Shown: in pieces, positions 6,413 through 47,200 of the stretch
Layout of the letters: the number at the start of each line of letters is the position of its first letter
Numbering within the stretch: the stretch's first letter is position 1
NCBI GenBank assembly: GCA_977862235.1
Contig: OZ374559.1
Span: forward strand, 62,001 to 126,000
DNA from: Dudresnaya verticillata
Lineage: Eukaryota
DNA: 64,000 bases
Reading direction: 5' to 3'
Made by a program: the position numbers and the translations under genes
Notes under the pieces: generated by a model
What the model was told of the DNA's origin: nothing
Database searches by the model: none
Seen by the model: the letters and a program-made list of their open reading frames with translations, nothing else

Positions 6413-6500
6413 CTGGAAAAGTAACTGTATCCAAGCACTAGACCCTATAAACCCCTAAACTTACTACTTTCAGCACCTCAACCCCATCACGCACGATACG

Positions 6501-13674: not shown

Positions 13675-13756
13675 TAAACCCCTAAACCCCTAAAACCCCT
13701 AAAACCCCCTAAACCCCTAAACCCCTAAAACCCCTAAAACCCCCTAAACCCCTAAA
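13675..13756 (+). repeat. Interstitial telomere-like tract, ~10 units of C4-5TA3-4 (CCCCTAAA)
   Basis: Directly visible. The C-rich strand is on +, i.e. left-chromosome-end polarity. Confidence 0.85.
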
Positions 13757-14296
13757 GTCCTCACCCAGTAACGGAAGCAATCGCAAGAAGAGAACTGCTT
13801 CCGATCGCAAGAAGACAGCTGTTTCCAGTCCTCACACAGGGACGGAAACAATCGCAACTTGGCAACTGTTCCCGGTCCCCACCCAGGGACGGTATCAGTC
13901 GCAAGTTTACAACTGCTTCCGGTCCTCACACAGGGGCGGAAGCCATCGCAAGTTGACAACTGTTTCCGGTCCTCACACAGGGACGGAAGTAGTCGCAAGT
14001 TGACAACTGCTTCCGGTCCTCACCCAGGGACGGAAGCAATCGCAAGTTGACAACTGTTTCCGGTCCTCACCCAGGGACGGAAGCAAGTTGACAACTGTTT
14101 CGGGTCCCCACCCTGGGACGGAAGCAGTCGCAAGTTGACAACTACTTCCGGTCCTCACCCAGAAACGGAAGTAATCGCAGGTTTACAACTGTTTCCGGGC
14201 CTTACCCACAGACGGAAGCAATCGTAAGCTCACAACTGTTTCCGGTCCTCGCCCCACCGGGGACTGGAAGCATTCGCAAGCCGACAACTGCTTCCG
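13757..14296. repeat. 47-bp minisatellite (~12 units), each unit containing an 11-8-11 dyad (cluster A)
   Basis: Unit ggtcctcacacagggacggaagtagtcgcaagttgacaactgcttcc. The spacer is mostly CAAGTTGA. Confidence 0.9.
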
Positions 14297-14901
14297 CGCC
14301 CAGCTTCAACCAGGCCCGGAACATTTCCTATGCGGGGATCCATTCCTATTAGGTACGAAGACCTCAGGACTGGGCTTGGCGGTCCGGGGCAGGTACGCCG
14401 CAGAGAGCTCAAATGTTTAGGGACAGAGACAACCAGGCCAGGTACGGAGCCCGCCGTAATAACATATCTCGGTTGTCCTCTCCTCACGACATCAGTCTTT
14501 CCGTTCCATATGCGATTCTCAGCACAACCTGCCCATCTCCGGCCATGACACAAGTGTTCCCCGAGACACAGCAGACGTGGGGAGTTCGAGGTATCACGGA
14601 CGGAGATGTCAGGACTAATCTCAGCGGAAGGTACCTCTGTCGGTTGCTTGACTTATACCTGTTCCTGCCTCTCCCCAGCCCTAAACCCCTAATCCCTGAG
14701 GCAGGCAAGCCGCAGGGAGTTCAAAGGTTTAGGGACGGAGAGGCCAGGGCAAGGTTGCGCTGCTTAACGCACTACTCGCAAACTACATTACTACATTACT
14801 ACTACTCAGCGCTCGTGGGTCTTCCATGGGAACTCCAACGGTCTCTCCTCACATCCTGACGTCTCCACTTGTGGTGCTTCCATTCTTGTCTCGTCCGAGC
14901 T

Positions 14902-15123
14902 CGGAAGCAGTCACAGATGCTCAATTGCTTCCGCCCTTGTGCCCGCTCCAGCCCGGAAGCAGTTGATGTTTGATAACTGCTCCCGTTCTTTATTCCGCCA
15001 CGACCCGGAAGCAATCGCATGTCCACAACTGCTTCCGCTCCCCACACGCTGACGACCTGCCCATTGATTCCGCCCATCCTCCCAGCTCACCCGGAAACAG
15101 TCGCAAATCGACCATTGCCTCCG
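14902..15123. repeat. Dyad cluster B (4 copies)
   Basis: For example GGAAGCAATCG-CATGTCCA-CAACTGCTTCC at ~15007. Confidence 0.8.
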
Positions 15124-15210
15124 GGCCCTCTCGACAGCGTTTACGCGCTGCTCTCAACCTCTCCTTATGTACAGTATCTTACAAATTCGACTACCCTACA
15201 CTCTACTCCT

Positions 15211-18200: not shown

Positions 18201-19494
18201 TCTTCCCTGGCGGGGGGTGTTCCGCGATTTGCATTCTTTCCAGGTACTCATCGGGCACCTCCAGCTGCAGGGCAGTGGAGGTGGTCATCAGGGATACTTG
18301 CCCCATGCTTTCAATCCATCTCGCAACCTTGTCCCCTGCACTGAAAAAAGATTTCCCCACTTCGCGAATATTTGATCGTGTCGCAATGCGGATGTTCGAC
18401 AACGGCGTCGCCACGGGCCACTTCGTCTCGTCCCCGTCTTTCGGATACAAAGAGTGGCCGATCGGCTGCTTGAAAACAGTTGTGCTCTCAGAACCACTAA
18501 AGTTGACCATTCTCCACGTGTCGAAATACTGCATGACAATAGAAGGATGGGGCATTGCAAAATCGCCGTCCCAGTCGCCAGTCATCCCGACCCCACAGAT
18601 GCCTCTCGGAACCCCGCAATAAAATATAGGCTTCAGAGAAGGGGCCCGCGGAGGCGACAATTCCTCATCACGTTGGTCCCCGTCTGCAGGAGAAGCAGAT
18701 CTTCCGGGACTAACGCCCCTACGCGCAACACCGGAGGACGCCTGGACGTGACGACCGTTGCCAGTGGCAGCCACATTCGACACGTCACCCCGGCCCGTGG
18801 GGTTCGTACCGGCGTTCGATGGCGTGGAATGCCTCTTCTCCGGTGGAATCGGGCGTGACACCATCCCAGTTGCGCGTCGAGGTACGACAGCTGCCTTGTT
18901 CAAACCCTTCGGCGACTTCTCACGAGGTGTCGGTGTAGATGATGTCGCCTCCTTAGCGCCAGGTCGTGTACCCGCTTTTTCCATTGGCTCAGTACCCGCC
19001 TTTTCAGTCGGCTCAGTACCCGCCTTTTCAGTCGGCTCAGTACCCGCCTTTTCAGTCGGCTCAGCCTCTTGCGGTACCGACACGTTCTTCTCCGCGGTCG
19101 ACACCCCATTGACTGCTGACAGTTTGTCAGGTCCAGGTGCAGGACGACGGCGAGGTGCACTTGGTCGCGGCGCACTGCCAGAATCGGCCGCAGGTTTGTC
19201 TCCAGTCGGTACTGCGGGGGTTGGATCCTCATTCTCTCCGTTCCCTGTCGCCTTGGTAGGGGCTGGCGGACCATCCTGTAAAGTCTCAGGGCGGGGAATC
19301 CCATTTGCTCCAGCAGTCCCCCCAGAGCCGCCTACGCTCGGTGCAGCAGCTTCCTTGTTTGGTGAACCATCTCCATCGCGACTCCCACCCGAGCCACGTC
19401 GGCCTCGTCCGCCTGCACGTTGACGACGACTTCGTGTCGCAATAGACTTCCCGCGGCCTTTCCCTGCCCCACTTCTTTTCGGGCTGTTCGTCAT
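15211..19494 (-). CDS. Large hypothetical protein (~1,430 codons) interrupted by one in-frame TAG at 17146-17148
   Basis: ORFs 17146-19533 and 15211-17115 are in the same frame (CGCV*IADNEIKHACMGC). The N-terminus is low-complexity with 4x EPTEKAGT (24-bp repeat, ~18968-19063). Confidence 0.65.
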
Positions 19495-19539
19495 TTCGGT
19501 TTGCTCCCCCTCCTCAGCAGTTTCGTTCTGCACTTCTTG

Positions 19540-20314
19540 CGGAGGCAGTTGTCGGTTTGCAGCTGCTTCCGAGTAACGGACGTTGAGCGGAAGCAGTCGT
19601 TGGTTTGCAACGGCTTCCGGCCCTTCTAGATCGCAACGGGTGGACTTGGTGTAAAAGGATACCCGGTCTTACAGCTGGCGCAGCTGTCAGGTTGCAACTG
19701 CTTCCGGGTATTGTACGTTGCGGAAGCAGTTGTCGGTTTGCAACTGCTTCCAGCTCTTCTGGTCGCAACGGCCGGACTTGATGGAGAAGGAGACCGGTCT
19801 TACAGCGCAAGCAGCTGTCAGGTTGCAACTGCTTCCGGATAGTGCACGTCGTGCGGAAGCAGTTGTCGGTTTGCAGCTGTTTCCGGATCTTCTTGTTCGA
19901 AATTTGATGGTGAAGGATACCTGTCTTACAGCGGAAGCAGCTGTCAGGTTGCAACTGCTTCCGGGTAGTGCACGTCGTGTGGAAGCAGTTGTCGGTTTGC
20001 AAATGCTTCCGGCTCTTCTTGATTGTAACGGTCGACCTTGTCAGAGAAGTGCAGAGAAGTGAACACCGTCTTGCAGCGGAAGCAGATGTCAGTTTGCTAC
20101 CGCTTCCGGGTGGTGGAGGGTGATCCGGAACTGAACCGGAATTAGATCCTGTTTCGGTCCACGTGTTCCGGTCTTGAAGCAGAAGCAGTTCTGTGATTGC
20201 AACTGTTTCCGGGTCTTCTGCTCCGAGACGGACTTGTGCTTGATGAGGATCAAGGCTATGCCCGGAAGATCCAGTTTTCAGGCGGAAGCAGTTGCAAATC
20301 GTCTGCTGCTTCCG
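19540..20314. repeat. Dyad cluster C (~11 copies, spacer polarity opposite to cluster A)
   Basis: GGAAGCAGTTG-TCGGTTTG-CAACTGCTTCC alternates with TCAGGTTG spacers in a ~130-bp higher-order unit. Confidence 0.9.
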
Positions 20315-21049
20315 GTATGCTTCTCCCGTTTACGAGCTTGTCGGCAACCAAACCAAGTGAGAACAGTAGACCGATAGGAGCAAAGCGAGCACAGAGCTGG
20401 AGAAAACTAGTCAGACGCAGTGCCTTCCTCAACTTCTCGTCAGTGTCGTGGCGGAAGCAATAGAGACCTTGACAATTGCAAACCGCGGGGCACAGTAGCG
20501 GCGCAACCCTTCGTGTTCTGGACGACCTGGCTGTTGGTACGAAGCGGGCTACTCCGTTGCAGTCTTGATCAGGACGCTGCTGTAGCAGTGAGGTAGTGTC
20601 GAGTAAGCTCGTCGGTAAAGGGCCTCGCAACGTCGCGGATAAACGCTGCAGTTCCTTCCCACTGAGAGCGGTTATCCGCAGACGCACAGTGTGGCAGTGG
20701 CGCTCCTTGGTGGCGCGTTTGGGGCTTCGAGAAGAGCGCTGCGTCAAGAGGCAGTGACAGTGCGGTTCTGTGTCGCCACAGATCTCCTTCACAGTCCGAC
20801 AGCGGGAGCCCTCAGCAGCACTGGCAGAGCCGTGCGCAAAAGTACGACGGGAAGCCGTGTAGTACACCCAACGACGGCAGTCGGTGCGGTAGGGCGCCGG
20901 GTGGTAGGCAGCGACACAATGCGCCAGCCAGACAACGGGGCAGAAGTCTTGGTAGCTTAGCTAGCAGTAGTTGCGCAGTCGACAGCGAGTACAGCAGTGG
21001 CAATTCCAAACACACCCGTCACAGTATCTGTGTCGATGCAGAGGGTGCG

Positions 21050-21460
21050 GGTAGACTGCGCAGGCGCAGGTGCAGGCGCAGTGTGCCGGTAGAGTGCGCG
21101 GGCGGGGGCGCGGGCGGGTTCTTGGACTTATGTGTGCGGGCGGGGGCGCAGGCGCAGGTGCAGGCGCAGTGTGTCGGTAGAGTGCGCTGGCGGGGGCGCG
21201 GGCGGGTTCTTGGACTTATGTGTGCGGGCGGGGGCGCAGGTGCAGTTGCAGGCGCGGTCTTGGGGCTTGGTGCGCGGTCGGGGGCGCGGGCGCGGGCGCG
21301 GGCGAGGTTGCGGGCGAGGTTGCAGCGGTGACGGCGCGGGCGCAGGAGCACGCGCGGTGTTGCGGTTTGGTGCGCGGTCGGGGGCGCGGGCGCAGGCGAG
21401 GTTGCGGGCGAGGTTGCGGCGGTGACGGCGCGGCCGCGGGCGCGGGCGCGGGTGAGGTAG
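21050..21460. repeat. GC-rich low-complexity tandem duplications
   Basis: Duplicated ~89-bp block containing gggcgggttcttggacttatgtgtgcggg, plus gcgggcgaggtt repeats. Confidence 0.75.
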
Positions 21461-22223
21461 CGGTGTTAGCGTAGAGAGCACGGGCGCGGGCGCGACTGTG
21501 CGGGTTGGGGTGGCAGTGGCGGTGTCGGCGTGAGCGGGAAGAGGGTGGAGGGTCCGTCGGTGGGGGTAGTTATGCCGCGGAAGCAATCGCGGGCGGGCGG
21601 GCGGCGTACATGAAGGCGGGAAATCGCGCGACGACGGCCGACGACGGCCAACGGCTGCAGGTGATGATTTGTAATTTTTGCGCCAAACAGTGGGAGATTC
21701 ATATTCTTTCCAGATTATCGACTGGGCATTAGACAAGTGTCGACCTCTGCTTCCTCCACATCTCCCTAGCCCATCACACGGACATCTGTCCTCCCATCTC
21801 TCGCATCACCGGACTGCATGACCCGCCTGCTCCCCTCATCCGCACGCGGCTTTTCCCCATATCAATCCCGCACTTTCCCTCCCCCACCTTCCCACCGTGC
21901 AGCACTCCCCCGCTTCCTTCGTGTCCGCTTTTCCTTCCCGGCCGTCTTGTCGCTTGCAGCATTCGTCGCCTGGGCAGCCTTCATAGTCTTCCTTCCCTGA
22001 GGCCTATCCCGCAACCGCACCGCACCCCGCGACGACGGCGACCGATGGTGGTCCGCGCAGGTCCCGCTTTCCAACACCGCGACAGGCTATGCAAGTCTCG
22101 GGCTATTCCTCCTGCTCACCTTTTTGGACAACTGCGGCGTATGGCAGATTCTAGCGCGGGCTACTGCTCAGGCAGGCTGATGTGCGTCCGCACATCGGAG
22201 CATACGCACACGCAGTCTCCCTC

Positions 22224-23045
22224 ATGATGCACGCGGGGTTCTGGCATGACAGGGACCATGAACGCATCCTGGCACATCTCACTGCGCTGCTGGTGGCAAT
22301 GAAGCTTCATCTACGTGACAGTCGTGTCTTGTCCGAGCTGAGGGCGTTGCTGGATGAGCAGTACGTGCAGGTGTTCGAGGAGGACGTACGTGAGCTCCCT
22401 GTCCGATGCATGGACGTGCTGCTGGCCTATCTAGACTCTGTAGACGCTGTTGAGGAAACTGTTGTAGCGGAGGGGAATAGACCTATCTTTGTCACTGCGT
22501 TCACCATGCAAGCCAGTCTTTGGGAAGCAGACCGTGCGCTGTGGGAGTGCGTCGCGATGAAGGAGGCTCCCATCGCACCCGCGTTCACGCTGCACGTACG
22601 TGCGTTCGCGGCCATCTGTTTCGTCTTACCACATTTGGACGAGAGCGATGAAGCAGACTCTGAGGTTTGCTTATTTGATGCCCGCGCAGAGAGGCGCACA
22701 GAGCGCTCGCTGTTCACGCACCTTCTACTCTCTAGACCGTGGTTTGCACTCGTGCTGACATTTTCGTGGGCTTCGGTTGCTTACTCGCGCTTCGAACGGG
22801 CAGGCGGACTTTGGGAAGGGAGACTCCGCGCGGGATGTCACTCACTTGCAGCTAATGTTTACATCTTCTATCGCGACGATGCGATACATGCAAGAGATAA
22901 ACATTGCCTCCTTGGGCTGATTGCAGAAAAACCGCTGCTGCTGAAGGCTGAGCTACGCAACTCTCGAGACGTACGAGACGTCAGCGCTTTATTGACATCA
23001 ACGGACCTTGCAAGCATGTCTGGGGCCGATAAAATGACGTTATAG
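22224..23045 (+). CDS. Hypothetical protein (~273 aa)
   Basis: Uninterrupted ORF with protein-like composition and no recognised motif. Confidence 0.45.
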   Translation: MMHAGFWHDRDHERILAHLTALLVAMKLHLRDSRVLSELRALLDEQYVQVFEEDVRELPVRCMDVLLAYLDSVDAVEETVVAEGNRPIFVTAFTMQASLWEADRALWECVAMKEAPIAPAFTLHVRAFAAICFVLPHLDESDEADSEVCLFDARAERRTERSLFTHLLLSRPWFALVLTFSWASVAYSRFERAGGLWEGRLRAGCHSLAANVYIFYRDDAIHARDKHCLLGLIAEKPLLLKAELRNSRDVRDVSALLTSTDLASMSGADKMTL

Positions 23046-27087: not shown

Positions 27088-28001
27088 TGAAACTCGCCGT
27101 CGGGAGGCAGGCCTGCCCTTTCCGGTTCAATGTATTGGTAGGTGCCACGGGTATGAAATCTGCTTTCACATACAGTTTCGACACCACTGGCGGGAGAAAG
27201 CCGAAGCCCACGCAGCAAACCAAGCTCCCACACTGCTAAACCAAGCTATTCGACGCCCTTCCCAAAAGGCGACAAACGGCTTTGCCACGGTCTCGTCATG
27301 CAGCAGAGCCGTCAGACGGTTTCACACAGCCAGATTCGCTGCAATCTTGACCAGCCCCAGTGCGGCTGCGTTGCCCATCGGTAGCGATGCGTGGGAGTAT
27401 TTCTGGACTGGGGCGGGATTTGGTCGCGGCACAACAGCGCCGCTCCAGCGACCCGCAACGGCGGCGACGATGTGCGGGCATCGTCGCGGGTGTCAGGTGG
27501 AGTTGGGAGCGTGGTGCGCAGGGGGGTTGTGCAGTGCACTTGACGGCGGTGACCGTTGCAGATCTTGAGGCAGCCGGGCGTGGTGCGCAGGGACAACAAC
27601 ACGTGTATGCAGCGGTCGTTGGAGGTGCGGGTGCTGCAGTCCGTTTCGAAACTTTACAACTTTTCTGAACATATTGTAGCTTGCCCTAAACGATCGGAGA
27701 TCAGTACTAAAATGCGACGCCGGTAGGAGACTCCTCTCCACCCTACTATCGACTGCGCGCGGAAACCAACCTCTACCCTCGCACTACCCTCACTCTCACC
27801 TCGCACTACCCAAGCTCCAACCTCAACCTACCCTGCTTCTTCTAACCTCGCGCTTTCCACCCCACTCTGGCGCGATCGACCCATCCTAGCGCGCGCGACC
27901 AACGTCCCTTTACCATTACCGCTTGCACCGTACGTCCGCGCGTTTTGCATTCCATCTTCCCCGACGACGGCGATATTACGATCACTCGCAACTGGCGCGC
28001 T

Positions 28002-28090
28002 CTGGTATTCGTGTTACGCTTGTTATCGTGTCAACACGTGCACACGGTGTGCACGTGTTGACACGAGAATGCGCGTAACACGAATACCAG
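28002..28090. repeat. 89-bp near-perfect palindrome (18-6-20-1-20-6-18)
   Basis: ctggtattcgtgttacgc / gcgtaacacgaataccag and tcgtgtcaacacgtgcacac / gtgtgcacgtgttgacacga are exact reverse complements. Confidence 0.95.
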
Positions 28091-28127
28091 GGTTGCCACG
28101 TGGACACGTATGCCTTGCATGCTTTCC

Positions 28128-28401
28128 GGAACCGTTTGCTGTTCTGCTTCCGCAGAAGCAGTAGAAGCACCGTGACAGCTTCCACAGTCGCGTCCCTGCG
28201 CGTCCCGCGGAAGCCGTCGCAACTCCACTACTCCTTCCGCAACGGATGCTTGCCTTGCCTCCACCTACTAACAGCTACCATCTGACCGCGGAAACAGTTG
28301 CCTATCTACATCTTTTTTCGCAACCATTAACTGTCATCTGCGCATTTGCTAACACTCCCAGTCTGTCTGCGGAGCCCGTCGCAAACCTATAACTGCTTCC
28401 G
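28128..28401. repeat. Dyad cluster D (4-5 degenerate copies) downstream of the YR-RecQ gene
   Basis: For example GGAAGCCGTCG-CAACTCCA-CTACTCCTTCC and GGAGCCCGTCG-CAAACCTA-TAACTGCTTCC. Confidence 0.65.
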
Positions 28402-28649
28402 CTGCATTCTCTCACTTCTCTAGCGCCTCGCGTCTTTCCGCAGATTCCGCAGCCGCCTCCACCATTGGTATCTTATACAACCTCCTTCTCCACCACCTCC
28501 TGCTCACCGTCCCGCGCTGCAACTTCGTTGCAGTTATTTACCCACTCCCGCGTCAAAAACTAACAATCATTCCTTTACTTCTATTCTCGCTTCACTTTAC
28601 ATATTCAAGGGACACACAGGTACGTGCTGGAGTCGCGTTCTTCACATTT

Positions 28650-31600
28650 CTACAACCCAAAAACCTCCACAGCATAGCGACAAAACTCTAGAATTCCGGG
28701 GCACCATCCCGGTTTGTCTACGAGAAGTTCCTCGCAAAACTGTTGCAGTCCTGTGCATCTCCTGAATCTCTGCATTCCCGTATGCTTCTTCATCTCCTCC
28801 CTCCACCGCTGGTTGTTCCACATCATCAGGGCCAGTTGCACAGGCCTATAGAAGGGACACCGCTCCAAAGATCCATACTCGTTCTGCCCCCGCAGTGGAC
28901 TACCGCTACCTACATGTGTCTTCTTCGAACCAAAGGTCTTCATCGAACATTCAGAACACCTGTTCGAAAAGAGCCCCCTCTTCGACTTCCAAGGCCGCAT
29001 CCCGCACTGTGTGGCCCTGTGCCCTGACTTCATGCAGCGAAAGCACAGTCCAAAGCTACAGACTCTGCAATGCTCCTTCGACTTCACCGCTTCAAGTCCG
29101 GCTGCATCCCCGGGTCTCGAACGCCCCCAGCACGGCGCGCATACCGTTCCCAGCTTCATCGAGAGATCCCGTAATTCTTCCACCGCATCCATCGCTCGCC
29201 GTCCGAACAGCAGCCACCACGCTGTCCTCCGGAGTACACTGTACGTCCAGACTCAACTCAGGTGCAGCTTGCAGCTGATTGCCCCCGCCCTCAGCTGGCA
29301 ACAGCTCCCCACTCGAATCACTGTCGTCGGTATCTCCCGCCAGCTTCTCCAGGTGTATCTGCGTCGGACTCGCATACACACCCCCGGTCGAGGCCAAGAG
29401 TACCGACGAGGCCTCCTCCAGGACTGGAGCAGGCTTGGCACATACATCGCACAACTGTACGGTCTCGTCTGGCAGTGTGGTCACACGCTCCGTACAGTTG
29501 CTCGGTACCTCCGGGCATCCCAGGTATTGCTCGATGGCCACACTTCGACACCGCCCCGTTTCTTCGGCCCATCTCTGGAATCGCTTAAGAGCCATCAGAC
29601 CCTCCGTGTCCCTTACATTTGCACGGTCCCCAAACTCACGGTGGTACAGTACACTCACAACCCCGCTCTTTCCATCCCTTCCAACCCGCCCGGCAACTTG
29701 GTACAGCTCCAACAGTGAACGGGTGCTCCCAACAATCACTGTCTTTGACACGTCAGGAGCATCAATTCCCGTCCCAAACCCTTCCGTAGCAATCATCACG
29801 CAAACGGTAAGCTCCCCCGCCCTCCCCCACTTCCACTGGGACACACTCCGCCGCCGCGCAGTATCATTCATCCCACTGTGATACTTCGATATCACAACCC
29901 TCCGGGATGCTTTAAACTCTCTCCTCGCGCAAAGGGCTGCATGCATATCATCCGCTTCACCCTTAGTAAGTACACACACCAGAACCTTCCCCCCCGCGCG
30001 CTCGGAAAAGGCCAGGCGTACCCCTGCCATCACACTGTCATTAACACACCCCATCACTTCTTCATCCTCCGCACTGGACAGCAGGTGCACACTGTACAGT
30101 ACATTGTTCCGCCGCATGCTTCCACGAACAACCTCCGTGTCCCCAACATTCGCACCACAGGCAGCAATTATCCTGTTCCCCATATGCACCGGGGCTGTGG
30201 CTGTCATCATTATCAGAGGGACACGCACGCGAGCCGGTCTCGCGTGACGCATCCGTAACATGCACTCCCGATAGTGCGCGCTCAATAGGATAATGTGAGC
30301 CTCATCCACAACAACCCTCATCAACTTCTTGTTCTTGTGCAACACGCGCAGAGCAGCCTTGTATTTCGCCAAAGACACATGCTCTGGCGCGGCCAGGATT
30401 ATACCTTTGCCGAATATTTCCATCTGTTCGTGATCATGGACGTCTTCGAAATCCAAAACGGGCAGCATGATGCTGTCGCACCGCTCTCTGATCTCCTCAC
30501 GCAACACACGAAGGGGGCATATGAAAACAGTCACCCCTTCCTCGCGCAATGCGGGCCCAAAAATAACCGCAGTCTTGCCAGCCCCCGTCCGAAGTACAAT
30601 TAACGCGCCCCTCTCCCTCCTGACAACAACCCTCATTGCATCCTTCTGTTTCTCACTCCTGAACTCAGCCTCAGGATCTCCAACCGCTTCCTGGAGACAC
30701 TCAACCAAACTCCATCGGGTCCCAGGTGACACGTCTTCATCAGACGACGAATACTCTCCCCTCTCACTTTCCAGCCTCTCCTTCTCATTAATTTGACGAA
30801 CGTCCTGTTCGTAAACATCCATTCTCTTTCCGATATCGGAAAGAAACCCGACCAGCTTGCTTAAGAGCTCAGGGTCCCCCGCCTTCGGCTTCCCATCCCT
30901 CTCCTCACCCTCACTCCGTCGAAGACCATGAACGCCCTTCTCCGCAGCAGCAGCATTCACTGCGTTCACACCATCCCCCCCGCTCTGCCCCCGTCCCTCC
31001 CCTCTCTCTCCTTCCCACGCCACCCCTTCACTCACGCCCACGGTCACCGCGTTCACATCCCTTGTCCCCGCCGCCGCACCCCGTTCTTCCGTTCTCTCTC
31101 CTTGCGACCCAGGCACTTCACTCGGGCCTGCTGCGCACCTCCCCCTCCGCCTCCGTCGGCGCAAGAACATCTCCTCCTCCATCACTGCGAATTTGAGCTT
31201 CCGACGCTTCCCGGTACCTTCCATGACTTCCGCATCCGCGGCCCATCGAACCCTCTTCTTCCCTCTCTCTTCACGGTTGCCGCCGCTGTGCGTGCCACTA
31301 GCACCACCGGCTGTATCCACCAATACCCTCACATCCCCCTCCTGCAGATCTACAGCACCTCTTTCAGTGCGCGACGGCGGTCGAGGGACAACTTCTCGCA
31401 TTCCCTCTGTCCCATTCCCGCTTTCAGCCTCCCCATCACCCTCCAAACGACCCATTTCCGCTCGGGGCACCTGTCCCGCAAAGCTCGGAGAGCCTGGCGG
31501 CAGTTGCAATTCCACATCTGCATCCGGCTCGCTCCCACCATTCCGAGATCCGAGGGACTCCAGCAGCTCCGGAAGCAGTTCCAAATCAATATGTGCTTCC

Positions 31601-34600
31601 GGGTCGCTCCCACCATTTCGAGATCCAAAGGACTCCGGGAGCTCCGGAAGAAGTTCCAAGCCGATATCTGCTTCCGGATCGCTCCCAGCATTCCTAGATC
31701 CGATCAAACCCGGAAGCAGTCGCAACCGATCTTCTGCTTCCAGCTCGCTTCCATCCCTGCTCACTCCCATTTCATCTTCCATCGCTTCCCCAAACAGTTG
31801 CCTCCTGACCCCGCCACCTCGCCCCGATTTCTTCTCCTGTTTGCGCCCTTCGGCCTCCGACTCACGCTCCTTCCGACTTCCGCCGACACTTCCCGGAAGC
31901 ACTCGCAACCCGGCAACGACTTCCGCAACGGAAATGCTTCCACACTCCACTCCTCCCCCGCTCGCTCCCCCCAACAACTGCCGTCGAACCCCCAAGGGCC
32001 CGACCGCTTCCTCCCTTCGTCTTCCACAATCCGTACCCGAGGCCTTTCCACTTCCTCCAAAGTCCTCGCCCTCCTCCTCGTCGGCCACAATTTCATTCCA
32101 GTCGACGTTGCTCGCCAACCCACAGTCGAGGAGCCACCCATCTGAAGCTCGCTTGAAATTCTTCATTCTTCGGTCGTCGATTTGCCCCCCTCCGGCAATG
32201 TTCGGTGCGCATGCCCCATACAGCGTCCGAGCCACCTCCATCGAATGCGCTCCCTGCACCTGCAGCACATTCCCGACAGCCCCGCCGCGCATCGCTTCCT
32301 CCTCCGATTGTTCCTGCGGAGTATTGCTCAACACCCTCGCTACAACCCGAAAGTCAGCATCCTGGTTCGCCTTGTCATTGGCATACCCGCCAAACCACTG
32401 CCGATGCATTTCGGCACTGTAATCTTCGGGCAACCCAAATTTCCTCCACATGATGGAGGCCATTTGCAAGCACCCGTTTCGAGCGCTCTCAGTGGGCATC
32501 AAGTAATCGTAAGCACCGTCTTGATCCACATCTTGGACCCTTCCTGACCCTCCCCGTTGCAGATGCCGGGACAGCGCCAGGCGCAAGTCCATACCGACAA
32601 GAATCATCACCTTGAGAAGATTGCTTGTCACCACATCCGGGTGCTTACTGATCACCCGCATCTTCCCTCTCTTCATGTTCCTGGTCTTGTCGTATGTCGG
32701 AATAACGGCGACCCGAGGTCCACCGGGAAACTGTATTCCTCGCGGTCCACTTGCCGTGTTCCTCACAGCCAAAAAACCCAGCTCCGGACCCCGGCACACA
32801 TTGCCTCCAGACAAGTGCATGCAGGCCACAACAAGCACATTGAACTTCCTTATAACAGACAGCATCTCCCTCGCCCGCTTGTCGAAAGCTCCGTCAGAAA
32901 GATGATCCATCTTCCTCACTGCCTCACCCACCAAATCTCGGCATTCCCGAGCAATATCCCCATTCCGTTCATCGGCCATGAACCCGTACGGGACCAGCTT
33001 CCTCGTCGTGTGGTCCACAATCTGGGACAGTCGCCCCTGAAAGTTCGTTGGCATCTCGACCCCTCCCAGAATACCATCCGCTCCAAACATCAGCCGCACC
33101 GCCTCTTTTTGCATCTTCTTCACGCAATGGCCAATCTCCTTCGGACTCATGTGCAGCCCCTCCACATATCCACAACACAACCCGTCGTGTTTCAGGTCTT
33201 CGCAAGGCATCCACGTGTTCCTCGCATACTCCTCATTTCGAAACCTTCGCGCCTGCAAACAAAGAGACTGGAGAAAGTGAATTCCAAGACTCCCGCCAGC
33301 CTGATGCCTCACTTCCACCCTGGCCAACTCTTCTTCACTCGTACCCTCCTCCGGGCTGCATATGTCCATCAACGCACAGCAAGAGCTCGCATACGCAAGC
33401 GCAGCAAGAACCGGGGACACATCCCTCCCTTGCGAGAAAGTAACACCCCTCCCTGCCCGCTTCACGCCGAGACAGGTTGTCAGGACATGGGCAGCGCAGA
33501 AGCGACTACCCTCATCCACGCTTACCTTCTCGTATAGCAAAGCCCTCAAGAGGCGGTGCATTGCTCGGACAGCTTCAGACCTCTTCCCCGGAACCGGTCG
33601 CAATTCGACATCTGCTTCCGCGTCCCGGTTCTTCTCCTCCAGGTACACAACCATCACCTTCGCACAAGCATCCCGTACTTCTTCACTACCGATCAACCCT
33701 TTCGCAGATTCAGGCCCATCCGTCATCCGCAAAAGACCCAGTGCCACACCTGCCACCGATGACGCATACCTCTTCCTCGATTGCTTCTGCACAAGCACAA
33801 ATTCTTTCTTGTCCGTCCTGTTCGCACCTGGCGGAGCTCGACAGCCAGCAACACTCTGGCCATGGACATATTTGGCCTTCCAAAGCACAGCCGCCCAGCC
33901 TCGAACAGCGAAAGAACAGTCTTCGCCAACCACTTTTTGAGATCCACCTCATCGGCTCCACAAACCATCACCCCCCCGCTCGCTTCCCCACACAGCTTCG
34001 CGGCCTCCTCCATGGACATTTTGAGCTGTTCAAGCTTCAAGTCCAGCCTCGTTGCACTCGCAAACCCTCCCATCTTCCTCACATCCTTTTCCACAGGCTC
34101 TTCCACTTCGACTCTTTCCTTCTCGACCTTCTTGAGCTCCTGCAGAAGACGTCGAACATTTGAAGTTCCCTGCCCACTTGCTTGCCCACCTCCACTAGCG
34201 TGAGTATTGCCCTCTACCTCGTCCTTGATAACAAACGGGTTTCCCACTGCGTTGGATTTGAACAGTTTCTGGCACTTCATGACCCCAAGTCTCTTCATCT
34301 CTGTGAGGGTAATCTTCTTTCCAGAAGACCTGTGCATTTCGAAATGCTTCTTCATCGACTCGGGAGAGGACGACATGAATGCCCACTCCGAGCAGGGAAC
34401 ACATTGCAACACCTTCAGAAACGGAATACGGCGCACACTGCAACGAGACATTTCTGGCGCACAAGTTCCTATGTACGCTCCGTACTCTTCTTCCGAGCAG
34501 CTCTTCACAATCCCGTCCTTCACGGTCTTCCATGCCTTGAAAATGTCGTTGGATTCCAAGCGACTGATTCTCCTACCCGGCTGGCACTTCTGTATATGCC

Positions 34601-34754
34601 TGAACAGGTTGTCAGCACCGCGCGCTCCAAAGAACACGGCATGTCGACACACACCGCATCCAAGCTCAGCAACCTCGGGAATCAGATGCAAGTTGTACTC
34701 AGCCAGCTTGGAAACCGCCGATTGAACAACCTCAATACGGTCAACTGAACCCAT
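28650..34754 (-). CDS. Zn-finger / tyrosine-recombinase-like / RecQ helicase / CCHC fusion resembling telomere-linked helicases, split by two frameshifts (~33836 and ~29190-29250)
   Basis: RecQ motifs: TGAGKT, PLRVL, DEAH, TAT, YHSGM, ATEGFGTGIDAPDV, QVAGRVGRDG and RQC CR...C...CDVC. YR-like motifs: SGGNVCRGPEL, YDK, MHRQ and GAHS...LYG. N-terminal CGVC...HIQKC and CVPC...HFEMH; C-terminal CFRCMKSGHRATQC. Confidence 0.85.
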
Positions 34755-34877
34755 GTCGTAATGCGGGGTCACCACAGCTTCCTCAACGTCACAAACCTCT
34801 CGTTCGATGAAAAAAGCTGCATATGTCGGAAAATGTGATTCAGGTTAGCGTACTGAGTATGCTTCCGTAGCAGTTCG

Positions 34878-35106
34878 GTGGAACACATCGCGAGTTCGCG
34901 ACTGCTTCCGGCGGAAGAAGTCGCGAGGTCGCGACTGCTTCCGGCGGAAGAAATCGCGAGGTCGCGACTGCTTCCGGCGGAAGAAATCGCGAGGTCGCGA
35001 CTGCTTCCGGACCCCCAACCGAGAGGTCTCCGGAAGCTGTCGCAAACCCGCAACTGCTTCCGCAGAGAGCTCCCCGGAAACAGTAGCTTACATTCCACTG
35101 CTTCCA
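34878..35106. repeat. Dyad cluster E (6 copies, four in a 33-bp tandem) upstream of the YR-RecQ gene
   Basis: cggaagaaatcg-cgaggtcg-cgactgcttccg tandem, plus cggaagctgtcg-caaacccg-caactgcttccg. Confidence 0.9.
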
Positions 35107-35677
35107 GGTGGCTCCCCAAGCACGCTTACGGTTTCAAAACTGGTGAGTAATTGCTTACCGGAATTCGAAAACGCAAGAAGTAATTACGGTAATTACGAAC
35201 GCTGGCCGTCGCTGTCGTCGTCGTCGTCGTCTCTCTCGTCGCAGTCGTCGCCGTCGTCACCGTCGTCGCTGTCGGAGCAACAGCAATGTTTCGCTCGTCG
35301 ATCGCGGTTCGTTCCGTCGCTCAACTGAAATGGGAAAAGAAGAGTTAGCGCACGCTTCATAGGCAGACAGGTCTCCCGCAAATAGTCGCAAGTCGCTCGC
35401 AACATCCGCTTCGCGACGGTGGGGGAGGAGGCTGAACGAACCTGTCGTCCCTAGGGTCGGGCCTTGGTGAGTTTGGTGGAGGGGAGGGGGGTGCTCGCAA
35501 CAGGCTACAGCCTTTAAGTACTGTTTTCGAACAGATCCTTCCTTCTGTTGGCGCGAGTACCGTTCCGGTTTCCATTTCCGCGGGAAAACTGTTACGGTTT
35601 CGCACGCATGACGTGGCGGCCGGCGTCGTCGTCCACGTCGCCGACTCGGATACACTTCACACATTCTGATCTCATCG

Positions 35678-36570
35678 GAGCTCAGATCCAGACGTGATCT
35701 GATCCATTCCTGATATCTAATCAGTTCTGTAACGTGTGTTTGCAAATGTTCTCCGGAAGCATCCGCAACCTAGCACCTGCTTCCACGGAACGATCTTGTC
35801 GTACCTACCCGGTTACTACCTTCCCTGTGGACCGGTTGGTCTTCCCCATGGACCAAACGCTCTTCCCCGTGGACCAAACGCTCTTCTTCACGTATCCAAC
35901 GCTCTTCCCTGGGACTCCGTCGGTCTTCCCTGGAACTGCATTGGTCTTCCCTGGAACTGCGTTGATTTTCCCTGGAACTGCGTTGGTCTTTCCTGGAACT
36001 GCGTTGGTCTTCCCTGGGATTGCGTTGGTCTTCCCTGGGATTGCGTTGGTCTTCCCTGGGGATTGCGTTGGTCTTCCCTGCAACTGCGTTGGTCTTCCCT
36101 GGGGAACTGCGTTGGTCTACTGGTCACGGTCGACGTCGACCATTCTGACTCCGATAGTCTTCACAGCTTCTCATCTCATCGAAGCTCAGATCCAGACTTG
36201 ATCGGATGCGTTTGGTATGTCGGGTCAGTTCTGGAATGTATGATTGCAAACGCGCTCCGGCAGTGTCCGCAACCTAGCACCGGCTTCCAGGGAACGGTAT
36301 TGTAGTATCTACCCGGTTACTATCTCCCATATGGTCCCGTTGCTCTTCCATGTGGATCCAACACTCTTCCCCGGGACCAGATAGTGTTCCCTGGGCCCCT
36401 GTTGGTCTTCCCTGGGACTGCGTTGGTCTTCCCTGGAACTGCGTTGGTCTTCCCTGGGGACTGCGTTGGTCTTCCCTGGAATTGCGTTGGTCTTCCCTGG
36501 AACTGCGTTGGTCTTCCCTGGGCATTGCGTTGGTCTTCCCTGGGAATTGCGTTGATGTTCCCTGGGACGC
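35678..36570. repeat. ~500-bp diverged duplication, each copy with one dyad followed by a 21-bp minisatellite (gcgttggtcttccctggaact)
   Basis: Shared leader agctcagatccagac...gcaacctagcacc at ~35680 and ~36183. Arrays lie at ~35900-36118 and ~36398-36570. Confidence 0.9.
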
Positions 36571-37118
36571 TGCCTCCCCCCGTCATCTGCATACTCTACT
36601 GTTATGCAATAGGGACTTCCTAGCTGTGGACCCTACTTGCATCTTCCCTGCGGAGAATCCTCCTCGCCTCCAGCATTCCCTGGTTTCCGGTTTTTTAGTT
36701 AAATGGGGGGCTTCTCGCCGCTCTTCCCTCCGGGAATATATATAGGTGCTGCAGTACTCTTGAAATGGTAGGAAGGGGATAATCGTGATTAGGACGATGC
36801 AGCAGTACTGCATTCCTTGCGCAACGTAATCAGAATGAGTGCGCCGTACGCGGCGGGGTTCGTGTATGGCAAGCAGAAGACGTGGAAATGGTATGCGATG
36901 CATTCGCTGGGCGATGGGAAGGAGTGATGATAAAGTTTACTCAACAAAGTTTAGAGTGCACGGGAAGGAGTGAACCGCATTGCCGTTAGTGCCAGGGCTG
37001 TCGGGAAATTAGTTGCAATTGCAATTGTTGTTGCAGTGACATTGTATATTGCAATACTGTCCCTATTGGGTCGAGTAGAAATGTTGGAAGCCCTAGTGTT
37101 AAATGCAGTATACGATAC

Positions 37119-38070
37119 GCATATGTGCGGCTTTGTGCGCGAGCGAGATCATATATATCGTTCTGTAGGCGCGTAAAACAACATCAACGGCATTGCACAA
37201 ACTTATTGCACGACGTACGCATATGTTGCAGATGTTATTGGGGCATGATGGCTGTTATGTTGCAATACTGTATATATTGCCGAAGGGGAGAGCATTGGTG
37301 CAACATATTGCTTATTATCTTTAGTAGTCATTCGCCGTCCAGAGCGATGGCTTTGTGGAGTAGAGAATTGCATTTAGTAGAATCTATGCGTTTTGGGATA
37401 GGTTGGAAATGAAACCTAGGATCTCCATTAAGGTCTCTTCGACGCCCAAGAACCCACAGGCAACGTCCTGTACTGACACAAGACATCCACGTACGCATTC
37501 GTACACGTTGCCTTGATCTCGTGCTGCCCTCAGAGACTGAAGGATGAACGCGGCCTCTTCCCACTGTACGGACCTAGAACGACTCCCTTCGTATGTGATC
37601 TACTGTAGCACTCTTGGAGTACGTTCTCCTATCGTTCTCCTATCGACTTGAGATAGAACGCTTTCTTCGAATCTATATTGCATTTGTGCGAGCAATAACT
37701 TGCAATTTTAATGCTCCTAAAACGGATAGAAACCCTTACATTCGCAATTATATCCTGTGACTGCTACCCCATAAGCCCTATTATTGTTTCCGCGTTGCCG
37801 ACCTTAGCAAAGCTGGCATTAAAGCAACAGAACCTCTCTAGAGAGGCCAAACAAAAAGGTTATTTTTGGCTTCGTTTGGTTTGTGGATGGGTGGGAATGT
37901 TTGAACGTCGAATGAGAGAGAGGAGTGAAGCCTTGGGTGGTACGACGTGGTTGTGCTAATACGATTTTGGTCCGCTACCGGATTTTGTAACAGTTTTCCT
38001 CCATTTGTCGGGCTTGGTATGGAGGTTGTGGATAGTCTTCAAACATTATTGCATGAGGAAAGGCTCTCAT
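37119..38070 (+). repeat. ~950-bp segmental duplicate (copy 1)
   Basis: Near-identical to 53115-54064. The upstream 36843-37060 resembles 56675-56830. Confidence 0.9.
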
Positions 38071-40598
38071 GCTCTTCACCCGCGTCCAAACATTCCAGTT
38101 AAACCCCGCTTGCCACAATCACTCCCAGCTGCATATACATTCAACGAGGCGGATGTAAGACGGGCTCTTAGAAGTCTTCCAGTACACAGCTCACCTGGCC
38201 CGGATGGTCTCCGTCCGCTTCATGTTAAGGCGTTAACGCATGCCCCGGGTGGTTCGGAGCCATCCCTTTCTGCAATCGTGGCTCTGACCGCCTTTGTCAA
38301 CAAATGTGCTACGGGCTCTTTACCTCCTCGCTACAGTGCCTGGTTTGGGGGTGCCTTGCTTCTGGGTCTTCCGAAGCACCCATCGTGTGTTTCTAAGCTT
38401 CGTCCTATTGCCATTGGTGGCATCCTTCGTCATTTCGTTGCCCGCCTGTTGATGAAGAAGATTGCCCAGGACAATTCTATTCGTGAATACCTTCTTCCTC
38501 ATAAATTTGCAGTGGGAATCCCTCATGGAGGCGAATCTATTATTCACGCCATACGTTCTTTCGTGGAGTCTAATACTGAGCAAGACTATGTCCTTCTTAA
38601 GCTTGATGCTACCAACGCTTTTAACTGTGTTGAGCGTTCTATTATTCTCAGTGAAGTTATCGAAAGAGCTCCTGGCATTGCAAAGTTTGTGCATTTCCTT
38701 TTCTCGACTGAACCCGTTCTTCTATGTGGCCAGTTTCAGTTGTTCAGTCGGACAGGTACACAGCAGGGTGATCCGTTGAGCATGCTACTTTTTGCTCTCG
38801 CGATTCATCCCCTGCTCATCAACATGCTCTCTACGTTCGCCTCCATCAAACTTCTTGCTGCATATGCTGATGACATTCATGTTGCTGTTCCGCGTTCTAT
38901 TGCTTTCGATGTTATCCAGTTTCTAAAGACCCAAGGCCCCAAAATTGGTTTCAATCTGCACATAGCAGTGGGGAAAACAGAAGCTTGGTGGCCTTCTTTA
39001 TCGTCCCGTCGTGTTTCTCGTTCCACCTCCCTAGGTTGTCCTATCAACAATCATTCTTTTATCACAGTTCTGGGCGCCCCTATTGGCAGCACTGAGGGCT
39101 GTTTACAACATCTAAGAACTAAGCATGAGCCCATCCAATATTTCTGGGCCCAACTGAAGCAGCTTAATGATCCTCAACTCGTTTTTCATTTATTACGGTA
39201 CTGTGCTGGAACTTGCAAGCTTTCATACCTACTGCGATGCACTCCCCCGCAACTAACCCAAGCCATTTCATTAACACATGACTGTGGCATGCGTGGAGTG
39301 TTTGAACACACACACATTCCACTATCGGATGAATCCTGGGATATGGTTTCGCTTCCCATGCGACACGGTGGACTAGGTCTTACAAATGCCTGTCACATTG
39401 CCCACTGCAGCTATATCACCTCCGTCCTGTCCTCTCTCGCCTGGATTCGATGCCTGGTATCTTTTGATGCTCCTACTTTGCACCATTTCCTCGCCCCGTC
39501 TCTTCATAACATTCGCGAACAGCAACTACTCCGTGAAGATCGTGAAAAATGCAGTGTTTCTTCTATCTTGTCGGCCGCATCTTCCATAGCTCATGGTGTC
39601 GTTCCCGCATTGTCCCAAGATCTTCTTCCCTATATTCAAAGAAAATTGCGACACGACCTCATGTCCCAGATGACTACTCAGCATAGCTCTCGTGCCCGAG
39701 TACGGATTCAATCTACCTCTACTGTCAACTCTAGCCGCCCTTTCAGTGCCCTCCCATATGCATCTTCTTCTACCCGCGTGCAACCCGACATATTGCTCAC
39801 CATGCTCAAACTCAGACTGGGTGTGGCGATCTTCCGTGGTGATCGCCCTTGTCCTGCTTGTCTCCATGGCACATCCGCTGAAGTTCCACTCCTTGATATC
39901 TTTGGACACCATGCCACAATCTGTCGATCGGGAACTGGCAGTATTCGCCGCCATGATACCCTCCGAAATCAACTTGGGGCTTTCTTTCGTAATACTGCTC
40001 GGAACCATGGCGTTACTGTTCAGCTTGAACGCAACTTTTCCTACCTAGAGGAGACTGGGGATTCCCGAGTTATGCCGTCTTCTGCACGCACTGCTTCAGA
40101 AAGGCGTCGCGATGCCCGTCAATTACAACGTACTGAAGACCGTTTCGAAGAAGACCGACGTGACCATCTTCGTATGGATCTCTATGTCGATGACCCTGCG
40201 TTTGCTCCCCTCCCGCAAGCATTTGACGTCTCCGTGGTGACACCACACCATCCAACTACACTGTCCAAAACGCCTCGCTCTCAACATCAAGCTATTCACC
40301 GCCGCGAGCAAGCTAAAGCCCGTCATTATCGTCGCTTATGTTCTACCAACCGGATAGAACTCCATCCTATGGTGATGGACATCTATGGTGCCATTGGTTC
40401 TGGGTTCGATCGAGGCGCTCAGCGCGTGGCGAATTTCTTAGCTGCTATGAAGGGCACTTCGCCGATATCTGAGAAACTATCTCTCCTCACCCACCTCACC
40501 TCTCTTGTACTTCAATCTGTCGCGGTGGCTGTTAACCGCCGTTTACTCTTCGACCGTCGCCTTTCAGATGAGTTGTAGATAAGCCCCCTTAAGGGGCT
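38071..40598 (+). mobile_element. 5'-truncated RLE-type non-LTR retrotransposon (CRE-like), frame open to 40578
   Basis: RT motifs SPGPDG, RPIAIG, LDATNAFN, GTQQGDPLS and YADD, followed by CPAC...HHATIC Zn knuckle, RRHD and RMD...FDVSV endonuclease motifs. Confidence 0.9.
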
Positions 40599-43440: not shown

Positions 43441-44255
43441 ATCATCATCATCATCACAACTTTATTGAAGCAAGACGAACATTGGAAATCACAAGTTGTG
43501 GCATTAAGGGATAATAGAGCTGGACACTTTGGTAAAATGCAGTGTGTATCTCCGTAAAAAGCATAGCAGGCAATGCCAAGTAGACCCAGAGGAGGGAAAC
43601 TTGGCCTTCGCCGCTAACCGTCGTCATCGCTGCCGCCCTTACAACAGAGTCGCGAGCCTTCCTTCATCGCAGCGCGGTGCACATGTATTTGGCGCCTGCG
43701 CGGATTGGCTCACTGTGAGATGTTTTGACCGCTCCCAAACATCGTCATCGTACCGCTGCAGTCTCGCGCTCCGCCGCTCAGCTCAGTCTCGCAATCCCAT
43801 CCGTCATCCACCGCCAGCATTTCGTGCCCACCAAACCGTTGTGCAGTCTCGCCGTCACGGCCTCTGCCGCGCCGTGTATGACATGGGCTGTAGCGATGAC
43901 GTCGTTTGAGAGATGGGGAGCTTTATGGTAGGGTTGGAAGGGCGCTAAGTCGCCTTCGTTTGTGCGTGACCGAAACATCTCGCAGAGCGCCACTCCGCGC
44001 AGGCGCCAAATACACGTGCACTGTGCTCTGACGTGACAACGCGCCTTTCGACTTTTACAACATCCGCTCCAAACAGCTCCGCCGCGCGGCACACCGCCGC
44101 CCACGCCGCGCTGCAACACCTCCCGCCGTCCCACTCGCAACTTTCATCGCGGCATAAATAGCGCCGTGCGCTTGGCGCACTCGCTCCCGACACACACACC
44201 CCAACCATCCCATCTCCAACCGTCTCCACCCGCTCGACCGCCCGCTCCTGCCGAC

Positions 44256-47200
44256 ATGGATGCCACACCGCAGCGCCTTGCCCTTCGCCAAGCTATCGAC
44301 GACAATGCCGACGGCGACGACATGGTTGCACTCGCATTTGCGTACTGGGACGCTTCAGATGGAGGGCCCGTTCTGCCTTCGCGAGCCGTCGCCTTGCTCG
44401 AGCGAGCGATTGATGAGGGCGACCATGACGAAGCGCGGCATGGCCTTGCACTGTTGCTGAAGGAAGGTGCCGCGGGAGTGCCCAAGGACGAGCGCCGCGC
44501 CGCGGAGCTGGTCGAGCGCGCCAACGCGCGAGATCCGCACGGGGTGTCGCTGTACAATCTCGGGCAGTGTCTCTGCTTCGGATTGGGCCATTTTGTCAAA
44601 GACACAAAGCGCGCGGCAGCGCTGTACGAACGAGCCGTTGCAGAGTTTGCGAATGTGGACGCAATGGTCAATTTGGGCAATCTCCTCAGAAACGGCGACG
44701 GCGTCGCCAAAGACGCTCCGCGCGCCGCTGCGCTGTACGAACGAGCCGTTGCAGAGTTTGCGAATGTGGGCGCAATGGTCAATTTGGGCAATCTCCTCAG
44801 AAACGGCGACGGCGTCGCCAAAGACGCTCCGCGCGCCGCTGCGCTGTACGAACGAGCCGTTGTAGAGTTTGCGAATGTGGTCGCAATGGTCAATTTGGGC
44901 GTTCTCCTCCAACGCGGCGACGGCGTCGCCAAAGACGCTCCGCGCGCCGCTGCGCTGTTCGAACGAGCCGTTGCAGAGTTTGCGAATGTGACCGCAATGG
45001 TCAATTTGGGCAATCTCCTCAGAAACGGCGACGGCGTCGCCAAAGACGCTCCGCGCGCCGCTGCGCTGTACGAACGAGCCGTTGCAGAGTTTGCGAATGT
45101 GGACGCAATGGTCAATTTGGGCAATCTCCTCAGAAACGGCGACGGCGTCGCCAAAGACGCTCCGCGCGCCGCTGCGCTGTACGAACGAGCCGTTGCAGAG
45201 TTTGCGAATGTGGACGCAATGGTCAATTTGGGCAATCTCCTCAGAAACGGCGACGGCGTCGCCAAAGACGCTCCGCGCGCCGCTGCGCTGTACGAACGAG
45301 CCGTTGCAGAGTTTGCGAATGTGGTCGCAATGGTCAATTTGGGCGTTCTCCTCGCAACCGGCGACGGCGTCGCCAAAGACGCTCCGCGCGCCGCTGCGCT
45401 GTACGAACGAGCCGTTGCAGAGTTTCCGAATGTGGTCGCAATGGTCAATTTGGGCAATCTCCTCAGAAACGGCGACGGCGTCGCCAAAGACGCTCCGCGC
45501 GCCGCTGCGCTGTACGAACGAGCCGTTGCAGAGTTTGCGAATGTGGTCGCAATGGTCAATTTGGGCGTTCTCCTCCAACGCGGCGACGGCGTCGCCAAAG
45601 ACGCTCCGCGCGCCGCTGCGCTGTTCGAACGAGCCGTTGCAGAGTTTGCGAATGTGACCGCAATGGTCAATTTGGGCAATCTCCTCAGAAACGGCGACGG
45701 CGTCGCCAAAGACGCTCCGCGCGCCGCTGCGCTGTACGAACGAGCCGTTGCAGAGTTTGCGAATGTGGTCGCAATGGTCAATTTGGGCAATCTCCTCAGA
45801 AACGGCGACGGCGTCGCCAAAGACGCTCCGCGCGCCGCTGCGCTGTACGACCGCGCCATCGCGGAGGGCGAAGATGTCGCCGCAATGTCCAATTTGGGCC
45901 GATTGCTGCTGAGCGGCGAAATCGATGTTCCGCGAGACGTTCCGCGCGGCGTCGAACTGCTCCAACGCGCCTGCGACAGCGGTCACGAGAGGGCCCCAAT
46001 TTATATGGTTCTGTTGGGCCGAGCGCTTTTGTCCAATCATATCGGAGACGCGCGCGATCCGCCGCGCGCGAAGAGCCTCTTCCAACGCTCAATCGAACTC
46101 CATCGCACCCGCTTCGCACTCTATGAGCTCGCCACATTGCTTGCCCGCGGAGATGTCGGTGTTGCTCGCGATGAGCAAACAGCAGCCGAGCTGCGTCAAC
46201 AGGCAGCGCATCAACTGGTAACGCCCCTTGAGCTTAAAGGAATCGGCAGCCGGTCGCAATACCTTGTCAACCACATCGGTGACACCAGCACACTTGTTGA
46301 GAACACCCTCAGGACCGCCACAGCAAAGCCACGGCAGTGCTTTCTTCTTGTTCTCGGCGGTGCGGCACGCGGCAAGACGAGCACGGTAAGGAGCCTGCGC
46401 TCCATGCCCTTCGTTGCCACCCACCAGCCGAAACACTTTGTGTCGCTGAGTCGCACTCTTGTCGTCCCGGACGGCCCCAAGTTGGACGATGACATTGTCG
46501 ACCAGCTCGCCTTCAACAGCGAGGCCTTCCATGCCCTCATGTCACGGTCAGGTATTCCAGAGTTACCCACGCCAACGGAACGACCAACGTCATCTACAGC
46601 AAGTGCATCCGATGCCGGCTCCTTTCGAGCTGGATCGGCGTTTCTCCCAACTGCAACTGATGCATCATCGCGGCCGAGTGAAGAATCCACCGCAAGATTC
46701 CGCCTTAAACTCCCCACTGGGCTCAACCGAGCTCCTCCGACCAAGAGGACCGTTCCCCAGAGTGGACCTCCGACCAAGAGGACCGTTCCCCAGAGTGGAG
46801 ACACATTGGCAAGCAGCCATACCACTGCTCAACAACCACCAGCTCCGCCCAGTATTGCTGCTTCGCAGTCTATCAACTCCCAAGCGTCTCCCATTTGGGA
46901 AGCAGCACGACAAGGGCTCATGAGTAACGGTTTTCCTGAGGACCATCGCGCTGCGTTGGTGCAATGCTGGGACCTTGGGGGTCAGGCAGAGTATCTCAGT
47001 GTTCCCGCAATCTTCATCCGCCGCGCTTCCATTTTTGTTTTCGTGGTAGATCTGAAAAGGTTTGCGTCAGAAGTCACCCAAGAGGACGAAGTGTTAGAAC
47101 TATGCAACTGGATGCAAATGGCACATGCGTCTTCGCAAACCCCGAAAAACGTTTGGGTGATCCTGGTGGGAACCAGGAAGGCAGAAGTTGAAAGCCCTAA

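Follow-up and report, generated by a model that had tools for sequence, protein, structure and literature searches.

What is the conserved domain that telomere-linked helicase (TLH) genes carry upstream of their RecQ-type helicase? The function of these genes and of their domain has been open since the first description and was still so in 2024, when a preprint, in its accessible text, left the domain without an assigned function (bioRxiv 10.1101/2024.02.27.582403). The question is raised again by a locus of Dudresnaya verticillata, lying in a stretch of 64,000 nucleotides (contig OZ374559.1, positions 62,001 to 126,000; referred to here as the window), where the minus-strand open reading frame (ORF) P0001 (33948-29092) holds a whole recombinase-helicase core in one open frame. 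We consider it fairly probable that this locus is a frameshifted TLH copy, that its middle domain, joined to a RecQ helicase, is a predicted tyrosine recombinase of the Cre/Xer type, and that a set of 32-bp sites in the window is bound and cut by the recombinase.

Five codons of P0001 had been proposed in a first-pass annotation to encode a catalytic set, and direct reading of the minus strand confirmed them: R386 (32791-32793), K421 (32686-32688), R516 (32401-32403), H568 (32245-32247), and Y577 (32218-32220), matching the order and register of tyrosine recombinases. In an iterated alignment, these residues are kept in 100/103, 100/101, 79/83, 79/79, and 77/79 of the rows spanning each column, respectively, and, of 105 proteins counted, 77 span all five positions and 73 have the complete R-K-R-H-Y set. 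Because of this conservation across family columns and in the spanning proteins, the set stands above chance. The histidine of the HxxR motif, expected of a tyrosine recombinase, is Glu513 in this copy, as had been annotated. Across the family the position is variable (Ser in 34, Arg in 12, Asn in 11, and His in 1 of 79 homologs), and His is present in the metagenomic homolog L172. It varies also among active tyrosine recombinases. The catalytic domain opens with a C-x4-H-x4-C motif (P0001 249-258; 33175-33204), a possible metal site, which is kept in about 90 of 97 homologs and replaced in the fungal-type rows.

Predicted models of the domain show the core-binding and catalytic fold of tyrosine recombinases, with Cre and Xer ranking high in structure comparison; as modelled, the catalytic fold and R-K-R-H-Y set of type IB topoisomerases are present as well. 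The best viral match of model m3a738d408749 is an uncharacterised 620-aa protein of a Feldmannia species virus (B5LWN9; probability 1.0, E 4.5e-3). Foldseek against the PDB gave no match at E<=0.001 for either predicted model, no Ndc10- or Crypton-type structure was among the 50 best structure matches listed, a PDB sequence search with the family alignment returned weak RecQ5 matches only, and profile comparison with Cre alone was uninformative. The first-pass annotation had made its proposal depend on the domain adopting a tyrosine-recombinase catalytic fold and on its catalytic residues being kept in homologs; the predicted models do adopt this fold and the homologs do keep the residues. The assignment of the TLH domain to the tyrosine-recombinase type is supported by these models and alignments, its activity and mobility being only predicted.

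The family was collected by a full HMMER search with residues 47-623 of P0001, in which 115 representatives passed E<=0.001; word-indexed protein searches missed nearly all of it, with one match each. The homologs are about 20-30% identical overall, and the helicase is present in 45/45 of those of 1400 aa or more. Among 20 homologs looked up, two clusters carried fungal names (Leucoagaricus and Hymenopellis); in the protein Atlas, the best clusters were fungal proteins without names (0.96-0.97), and one at 0.87, with 17% of its members assigned to Phage_integrase, is a lead only. A metagenome scan found homologs at 11 loci, including L172, an unbroken 1562-aa protein with all five catalytic residues, to which the family profile matched at E 4e-61, as it also matched named fungal proteins. 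The L172 gene stops 3.7 kb short of the (TTAGGG)n repeats that close the contig, its 3' end facing the telomere; no telomere run was found at the other ten loci. The 3' ends of TLH genes also face the telomere in M. oryzae, according to the accessible part of the source (PMC1635262). At L172, the interval from the gene to the telomere contains a 26-28 bp tandem array (9022-9137), and upstream of the homolog is a divergent ORF with about 600 codons, an upstream ORF being seen at L171 too.

These family matches and the telomere-adjacent L172 bear out the link to telomere-linked helicases that the first-pass annotation had drawn. By its layout the gene is a TLH copy, with the domain upstream of the helicase and a RecQ helicase core as in TLH genes; it is likened to the published TLH proteins by description and layout. 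The alignments place the predicted recombinase domain in the whole TLH family, fungi included. In a midpoint-rooted tree of 78 rows with at least 400 matched positions, most of them without a taxon label, the query groups with P0005-8 and P0010 and not with the fungal clade; with so few labels, the tree bears on neither host nor transfer. An occurrence outside fungi, as had been suggested, is likely for this window but is not new for TLH, since choanoflagellate genes are already reported in the accessible text of the 2024 preprint (bioRxiv 10.1101/2024.02.27.582403). No match was obtained by tblastn against phages, and neither the window proteins nor the aligned family matched the Pfam families of Crypton, Starship, DIRS, and Flp elements. 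In literature coverage that was mostly non-subscription and without supplements, including PMC4522978, PMC3627910, PMC9940879, and PMC10799480, nothing linking TLH genes with a recombinase was found.

The gene, as the first-pass annotation had not noted, is spread over three minus-strand frames, 34844-33723 (P0002), 33948-29092 (P0001), and 29252-28650 (P0003). Profiles built from the N- and C-termini of 30 long unbroken homologs matched P0002 (E 4.5e-27, residues 51-326) and P0003 (E 1.2e-30), with reversed-sequence controls at E 0.18 or worse. The copy is frameshifted twice, near 33867-33819 and between 29440 and 29198, both outside the recombinase-helicase core, which qualifies its description as a recombinase-helicase gene; mutations, read errors, or small introns could be the cause. 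The N-terminal C2H2-type zinc motifs are present in P0002, out of frame with the core. PF12013 (DUF3505/OrsD) occurs in 10 of 43 aligned family members and scored no match on this copy. The complete RecQ core and RQC claimed by the first-pass annotation were found, with Walker A, DEAH, and motif VI intact and RQC-type cysteines present; the core matches DEAD (E 9.5e-13), Helicase_C (E 1.3e-10), and TIGR00614 (RecQ; E 4.6e-30, below its curated cut-off). We take these cysteines to be of the RQC zinc-binding type known from RecQ helicases. The distance from the catalytic Tyr to Walker A is 544 aa in this copy, compared with 104-253 aa in 46 of the 52 homologs measured.

A repeat search first revealed a dispersed imperfect palindrome in the window, a feature absent from the first-pass annotation. 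Inverted 9-mer pairs occur 39 times at one distance and at most 3 times at any other (range 0 to 40), and a weight matrix trained on such matches found 47 sites, of which 44 were kept; the three dropped (11683, 24215, and 49362) are isolated and score 14-20 bits against a null maximum of 18, two of the kept sites scoring 18.5 and 20.0. Each site is 32 bp long, with 12-bp inverted arms around an 8-bp spacer (12+8+12). Arm positions are complementary in 39-95% of copies and spacer positions in 16-43%. The region has 36 strong left arms, and the partner is present for 33, always at a spacer of 8 (33/33). The copies fall into 20 flank groups, and therefore the sites are not one tandem array. The pattern counts 35 versus 0.01, which is evidence of non-randomness only, as the pattern was derived from the sites themselves. 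One edge of the spacer keeps C, A, and A (40, 38, and 37 of 44), and there are 32 spacer variants. A hairpin was considered and rejected, as compensatory arm changes are too few (2 versus 3.4 expected, next to 97 one-sided and 9 two-sided changes); by this pattern of changes, the site is a candidate double-stranded binding site and not a selected hairpin. Within 13675-20450, around an ORF pair named gene X and flanking it in clusters, lie 26 sites, and the other 18 lie within 27991-36600, both inside the TLH gene and around it; the 7.5-kb gap that separates these blocks has none of the final 44. The six sites in the coding sequence share orientation and codon phase, and all fall in linker or loop regions. 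No exact match to the site pattern was found in viral contigs or in 172 loci. Their layout and placement make the 32-bp sites likely, if putative, targets of the TLH recombinase (Table 1).

Table 1. Coordinates of the TLH gene, the 32-bp sites, and neighbouring features in the window.
Feature	Position	Strand	Basis or detail
5' piece, frame 1 of 3: two zinc-finger-like motifs and N-terminal region	33867..34754	-	P0002 profile match; tblastn of P0019
Predicted core-binding domain (N-terminal, helical) of tyrosine recombinase, P0001 48-244	33217..33807	-	
Predicted tyrosine-recombinase catalytic domain ("TLH domain"), P0001 245-611	32116..33216	-	conservation and predicted fold
G/E/R-rich linker, 473 aa, with five 32-bp sites	30697..32115	-	
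RecQ-type SF2 helicase core	29638..30696	-	Pfam DEAD, Helicase_C, TIGR00614; Walker A, DEAH, motif VI intact
Presumed RQC-type zinc-binding cysteines	29440..29550	-	sequence
3' piece, frame 3 of 3: Cys-rich C-terminal region and zinc knuckle	28650..29198	-	P0003 profile; zf-CCHC E 0.023
Four 32-bp sites just 3' of TLH gene	28153..28401		
Six 32-bp sites inside coding sequence	31495..33620		31495, 31570, 31645, 31711, 31894, 33589
Eight 32-bp sites 5' of TLH gene	34879..36289		four in 33-bp tandem array
Fourteen 32-bp sites	13772..15123		ten in or at end of 47-bp tandem array abutting telomere-like tract
Eleven 32-bp sites upstream of gene X	19540..20314		ten inverted relative to majority orientation
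Gene X, ~1480 codons	15211..19668	-	two ORFs, one frame, one stop between (17146-17148); one site inside (17617)
Internal telomere-like tract	13675..13756	+	units of 3-4 A, 4-5 C, T; C-rich strand on +
89-bp near-perfect palindrome, 560 bp past TLH gene stop	28002..28090		44-nt arms, 91% complementary; fold z -11.1
Two 21-bp tandem arrays	35903..36568		

The closest parallels of the domain are Cre/loxP, XerA/XerH/XerD, the integron integrase, and phage integrases, which share the predicted two-domain fold, the R-K-R-H-Y register, and 9 residues from His to Tyr; the 32-bp sites also resemble theirs in layout, with inverted arms around an 8-bp asymmetric spacer. Unlike them, the TLH protein is fused to zinc fingers and a RecQ helicase, its HxxR His is variable, its inserts are much longer (52 aa from Arg to His versus 22-23), and dozens of sites with unlike spacers lie in the window. 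To our knowledge, none of the Crypton, Starship, DIRS, and yeast 2-micron Flp/FRT systems is fused to RecQ or tied to telomeres. AcademH transposons, as far as the accessible sources describe them, are likewise mobile elements with a RecQ-type helicase. They use a DDE transposase with inverted ends and not a tyrosine recombinase. The TLH proteins of fungi and Monosiga (M. oryzae TLH1, S. pombe tlh1/2, U. maydis, and F. oxysporum) share with this copy the C2H2 motifs, the conserved domain, the RecQ core, and the C-terminal zinc motifs, as given in the accessible text (bioRxiv 10.1101/2024.02.27.582403). The accessible part of the M. oryzae study adds that the 3' ends face the telomere, that tandem arrays flank the gene on either side, and that many copies are broken; it does not report dense fixed-spacer sites, and its HAR-D has a 23-bp palindrome of another layout (PMC1635262). 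The present copy differs also in its host, likely a red alga, and in that its telomere-like tract is internal and 15 kb off. The Y' elements of S. cerevisiae are subtelomeric helicase units in tandem layers, called diverged RecQ, for which no recombinase domain is reported in the same accessible text (PMC1635262).

If the sites are indeed recombination sites, then two recombinase domains would sit on the 12-bp arms and nick at the spacer edge via a 3'-phosphotyrosine on Y577, and one strand pair would be swapped with another site. The second exchange would often be blocked, because the 44 sites have 32 kinds of spacer sharing mainly three bases at one edge, and the fused helicase would therefore have to shift or unwind the junction, with replication completing the process. 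In doing so, the 3'-5' helicase may set off copying in the direction of the chromosome end. The unit would then be copied onto another chromosome end along with all that lies distal to it, the telomere among it. In integron recombination, too, a single-strand exchange is completed by replication. TLH units would thereby be self-propagating chromosome-end elements. The broader proposal that they are unrecognised, eukaryote-wide selfish elements of chromosome ends, each with one recombinase-helicase, that the 12+8+12 palindrome is their first recombination site, and that a single exchange, completed by replication that the helicase drives, carries a copy of the unit together with its telomere to other ends, telomere rescue being a by-product, is tentative, and we stop somewhat short of believing it.

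It should be considered whether the sites belong to the recombinase at all. The domain may be an active tyrosine recombinase that acts elsewhere, e.g., at the unit boundary or on telomere repeats, while the sites serve another dimeric DNA-binding protein, such as the gene X product or a ParB-like transposon accessory protein. This is unlikely in our view, even if 26/44 sites flank gene X and a precedent exists in red-algal Plavaka elements, whose tandem inverted-repeat arrays lie beside a ParB-like gene according to the accessible text (bioRxiv 10.1101/2025.02.11.637652). Two further points for it also weigh against cutting of the sites by the TLH recombinase: a comparable array is missing from the contigs of relatives (6/6), and the variety of spacers is awkward for ordinary two-step recombination. 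However, 18 sites lie around and within the TLH gene itself, the interval between the blocks is free of them, tyrosine recombinases have sites of just this 12+8+12 layout and asymmetric spacer, and gene X lacks a recognisable DNA-binding family, the family and homolog searches having returned no family and no homolog for it.

The function of the domain could also differ from that of a recombinase. It is rather improbable that TLH is a domesticated telomere-rescue enzyme, its domain working for the host as a type IB-like nicking-closing swivel or junction resolvase and not moving its own gene: the recombinase matches cover the N-terminal binding domain of the model, whereas 5/6 topoisomerase rows start no earlier than model residue 196, the sites point to sequence specificity, and broken copies, like the present one, are common (4/11 full-length in M. 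oryzae, in the accessible part of PMC1635262), which fits selfish DNA. A telomere resolvase making hairpin ends, for which the 89-bp palindrome could be a replicated-junction substrate, is very improbable. TelA ranks 43rd, well behind Cre and Xer, a comparison of profiles with 57 TelN-like proteins came out weak and off-register, and L172 ends in ordinary telomerase repeats; the fully symmetric target of telomere resolvases (TelN, TelA, and ResT) is also not seen in the 32-bp sites, whose asymmetric spacers would inhibit resolution, as described in the accessible text (PMC12270096). Finally, loss of the HxxR His could mean that the likeness of fold is real and the domain only binds DNA without cutting, like recombinase-derived centromere or transcription proteins, which is scarcely to be expected when 73/77 homologs keep all five catalytic positions at such low overall identity.

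The proposed link of the TLH unit with chromosome ends draws attention to its surroundings. The gene points toward the telomere-like tract from 15 kb away, and no chromosome end lies inside the window. The tract resembles the telomere of the red alga Bostrychia, given as TTTTTAGGGG in the accessible text (bioRxiv 10.1101/2025.02.11.637652). Together with the long ORFs that run without interruption and with the Sel1/TIR/Roc genes, this resemblance makes a red-algal host likely, although a literature search did not bear out the tie of the Sel1/TIR/Roc genes to red algae. A second internal tract (6503-6546), also with its C-rich strand on plus, is followed by a 102-bp tandem repeat with TTAGGGG at 7021-7301. 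As both tracts have the same orientation, the sequence to the left of the window could plausibly lead to a chromosome end built of layered terminal units. The 21-bp arrays are likely the upstream boundary of the TLH unit and resemble HAR-CDEF of Magnaporthe in position, as given in the accessible text (PMC1635262). Between the site blocks, GC-rich tandem repeats and a bestrophin-like fragment occur at 21050-21500 and 22155-23045. Several long ORFs without a Pfam family lie in 457-12151; by eye, 1823-3406 and 4916-6412 are clear paralogs, and 457-1677 and 8977-10197 look related. A Sel1-repeat/Roc/TIR gene cluster (44037-48902, 51124-52167, 54926-56296, and 58711-59943) has 111-bp exact-period repeats and inverted duplications, which give it the look of an immune-receptor locus subject to shuffling. 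An open non-LTR reverse transcriptase ORF (37960-40578, plus strand), its 5' region repeated near 53115-53969, and a copia-type pol ORF (60802-63573, minus strand) are also present.

TLH is thus a known gene family, to which an apparently unpublished enzyme assignment and a candidate target site are added here. The assignment to tyrosine recombinases tells which catalytic residue should be mutated, the window supplies a candidate DNA substrate, and TLH function therefore comes within reach of standard binding, cleavage, and recombination assays. If the proposal is correct, then TLH units would form a new class of eukaryotic recombinase elements and would offer an explanation of how subtelomeres are shuffled and how fungi and algae can survive independently of telomerase; a lox-type tool of eukaryotic origin might also come of them.

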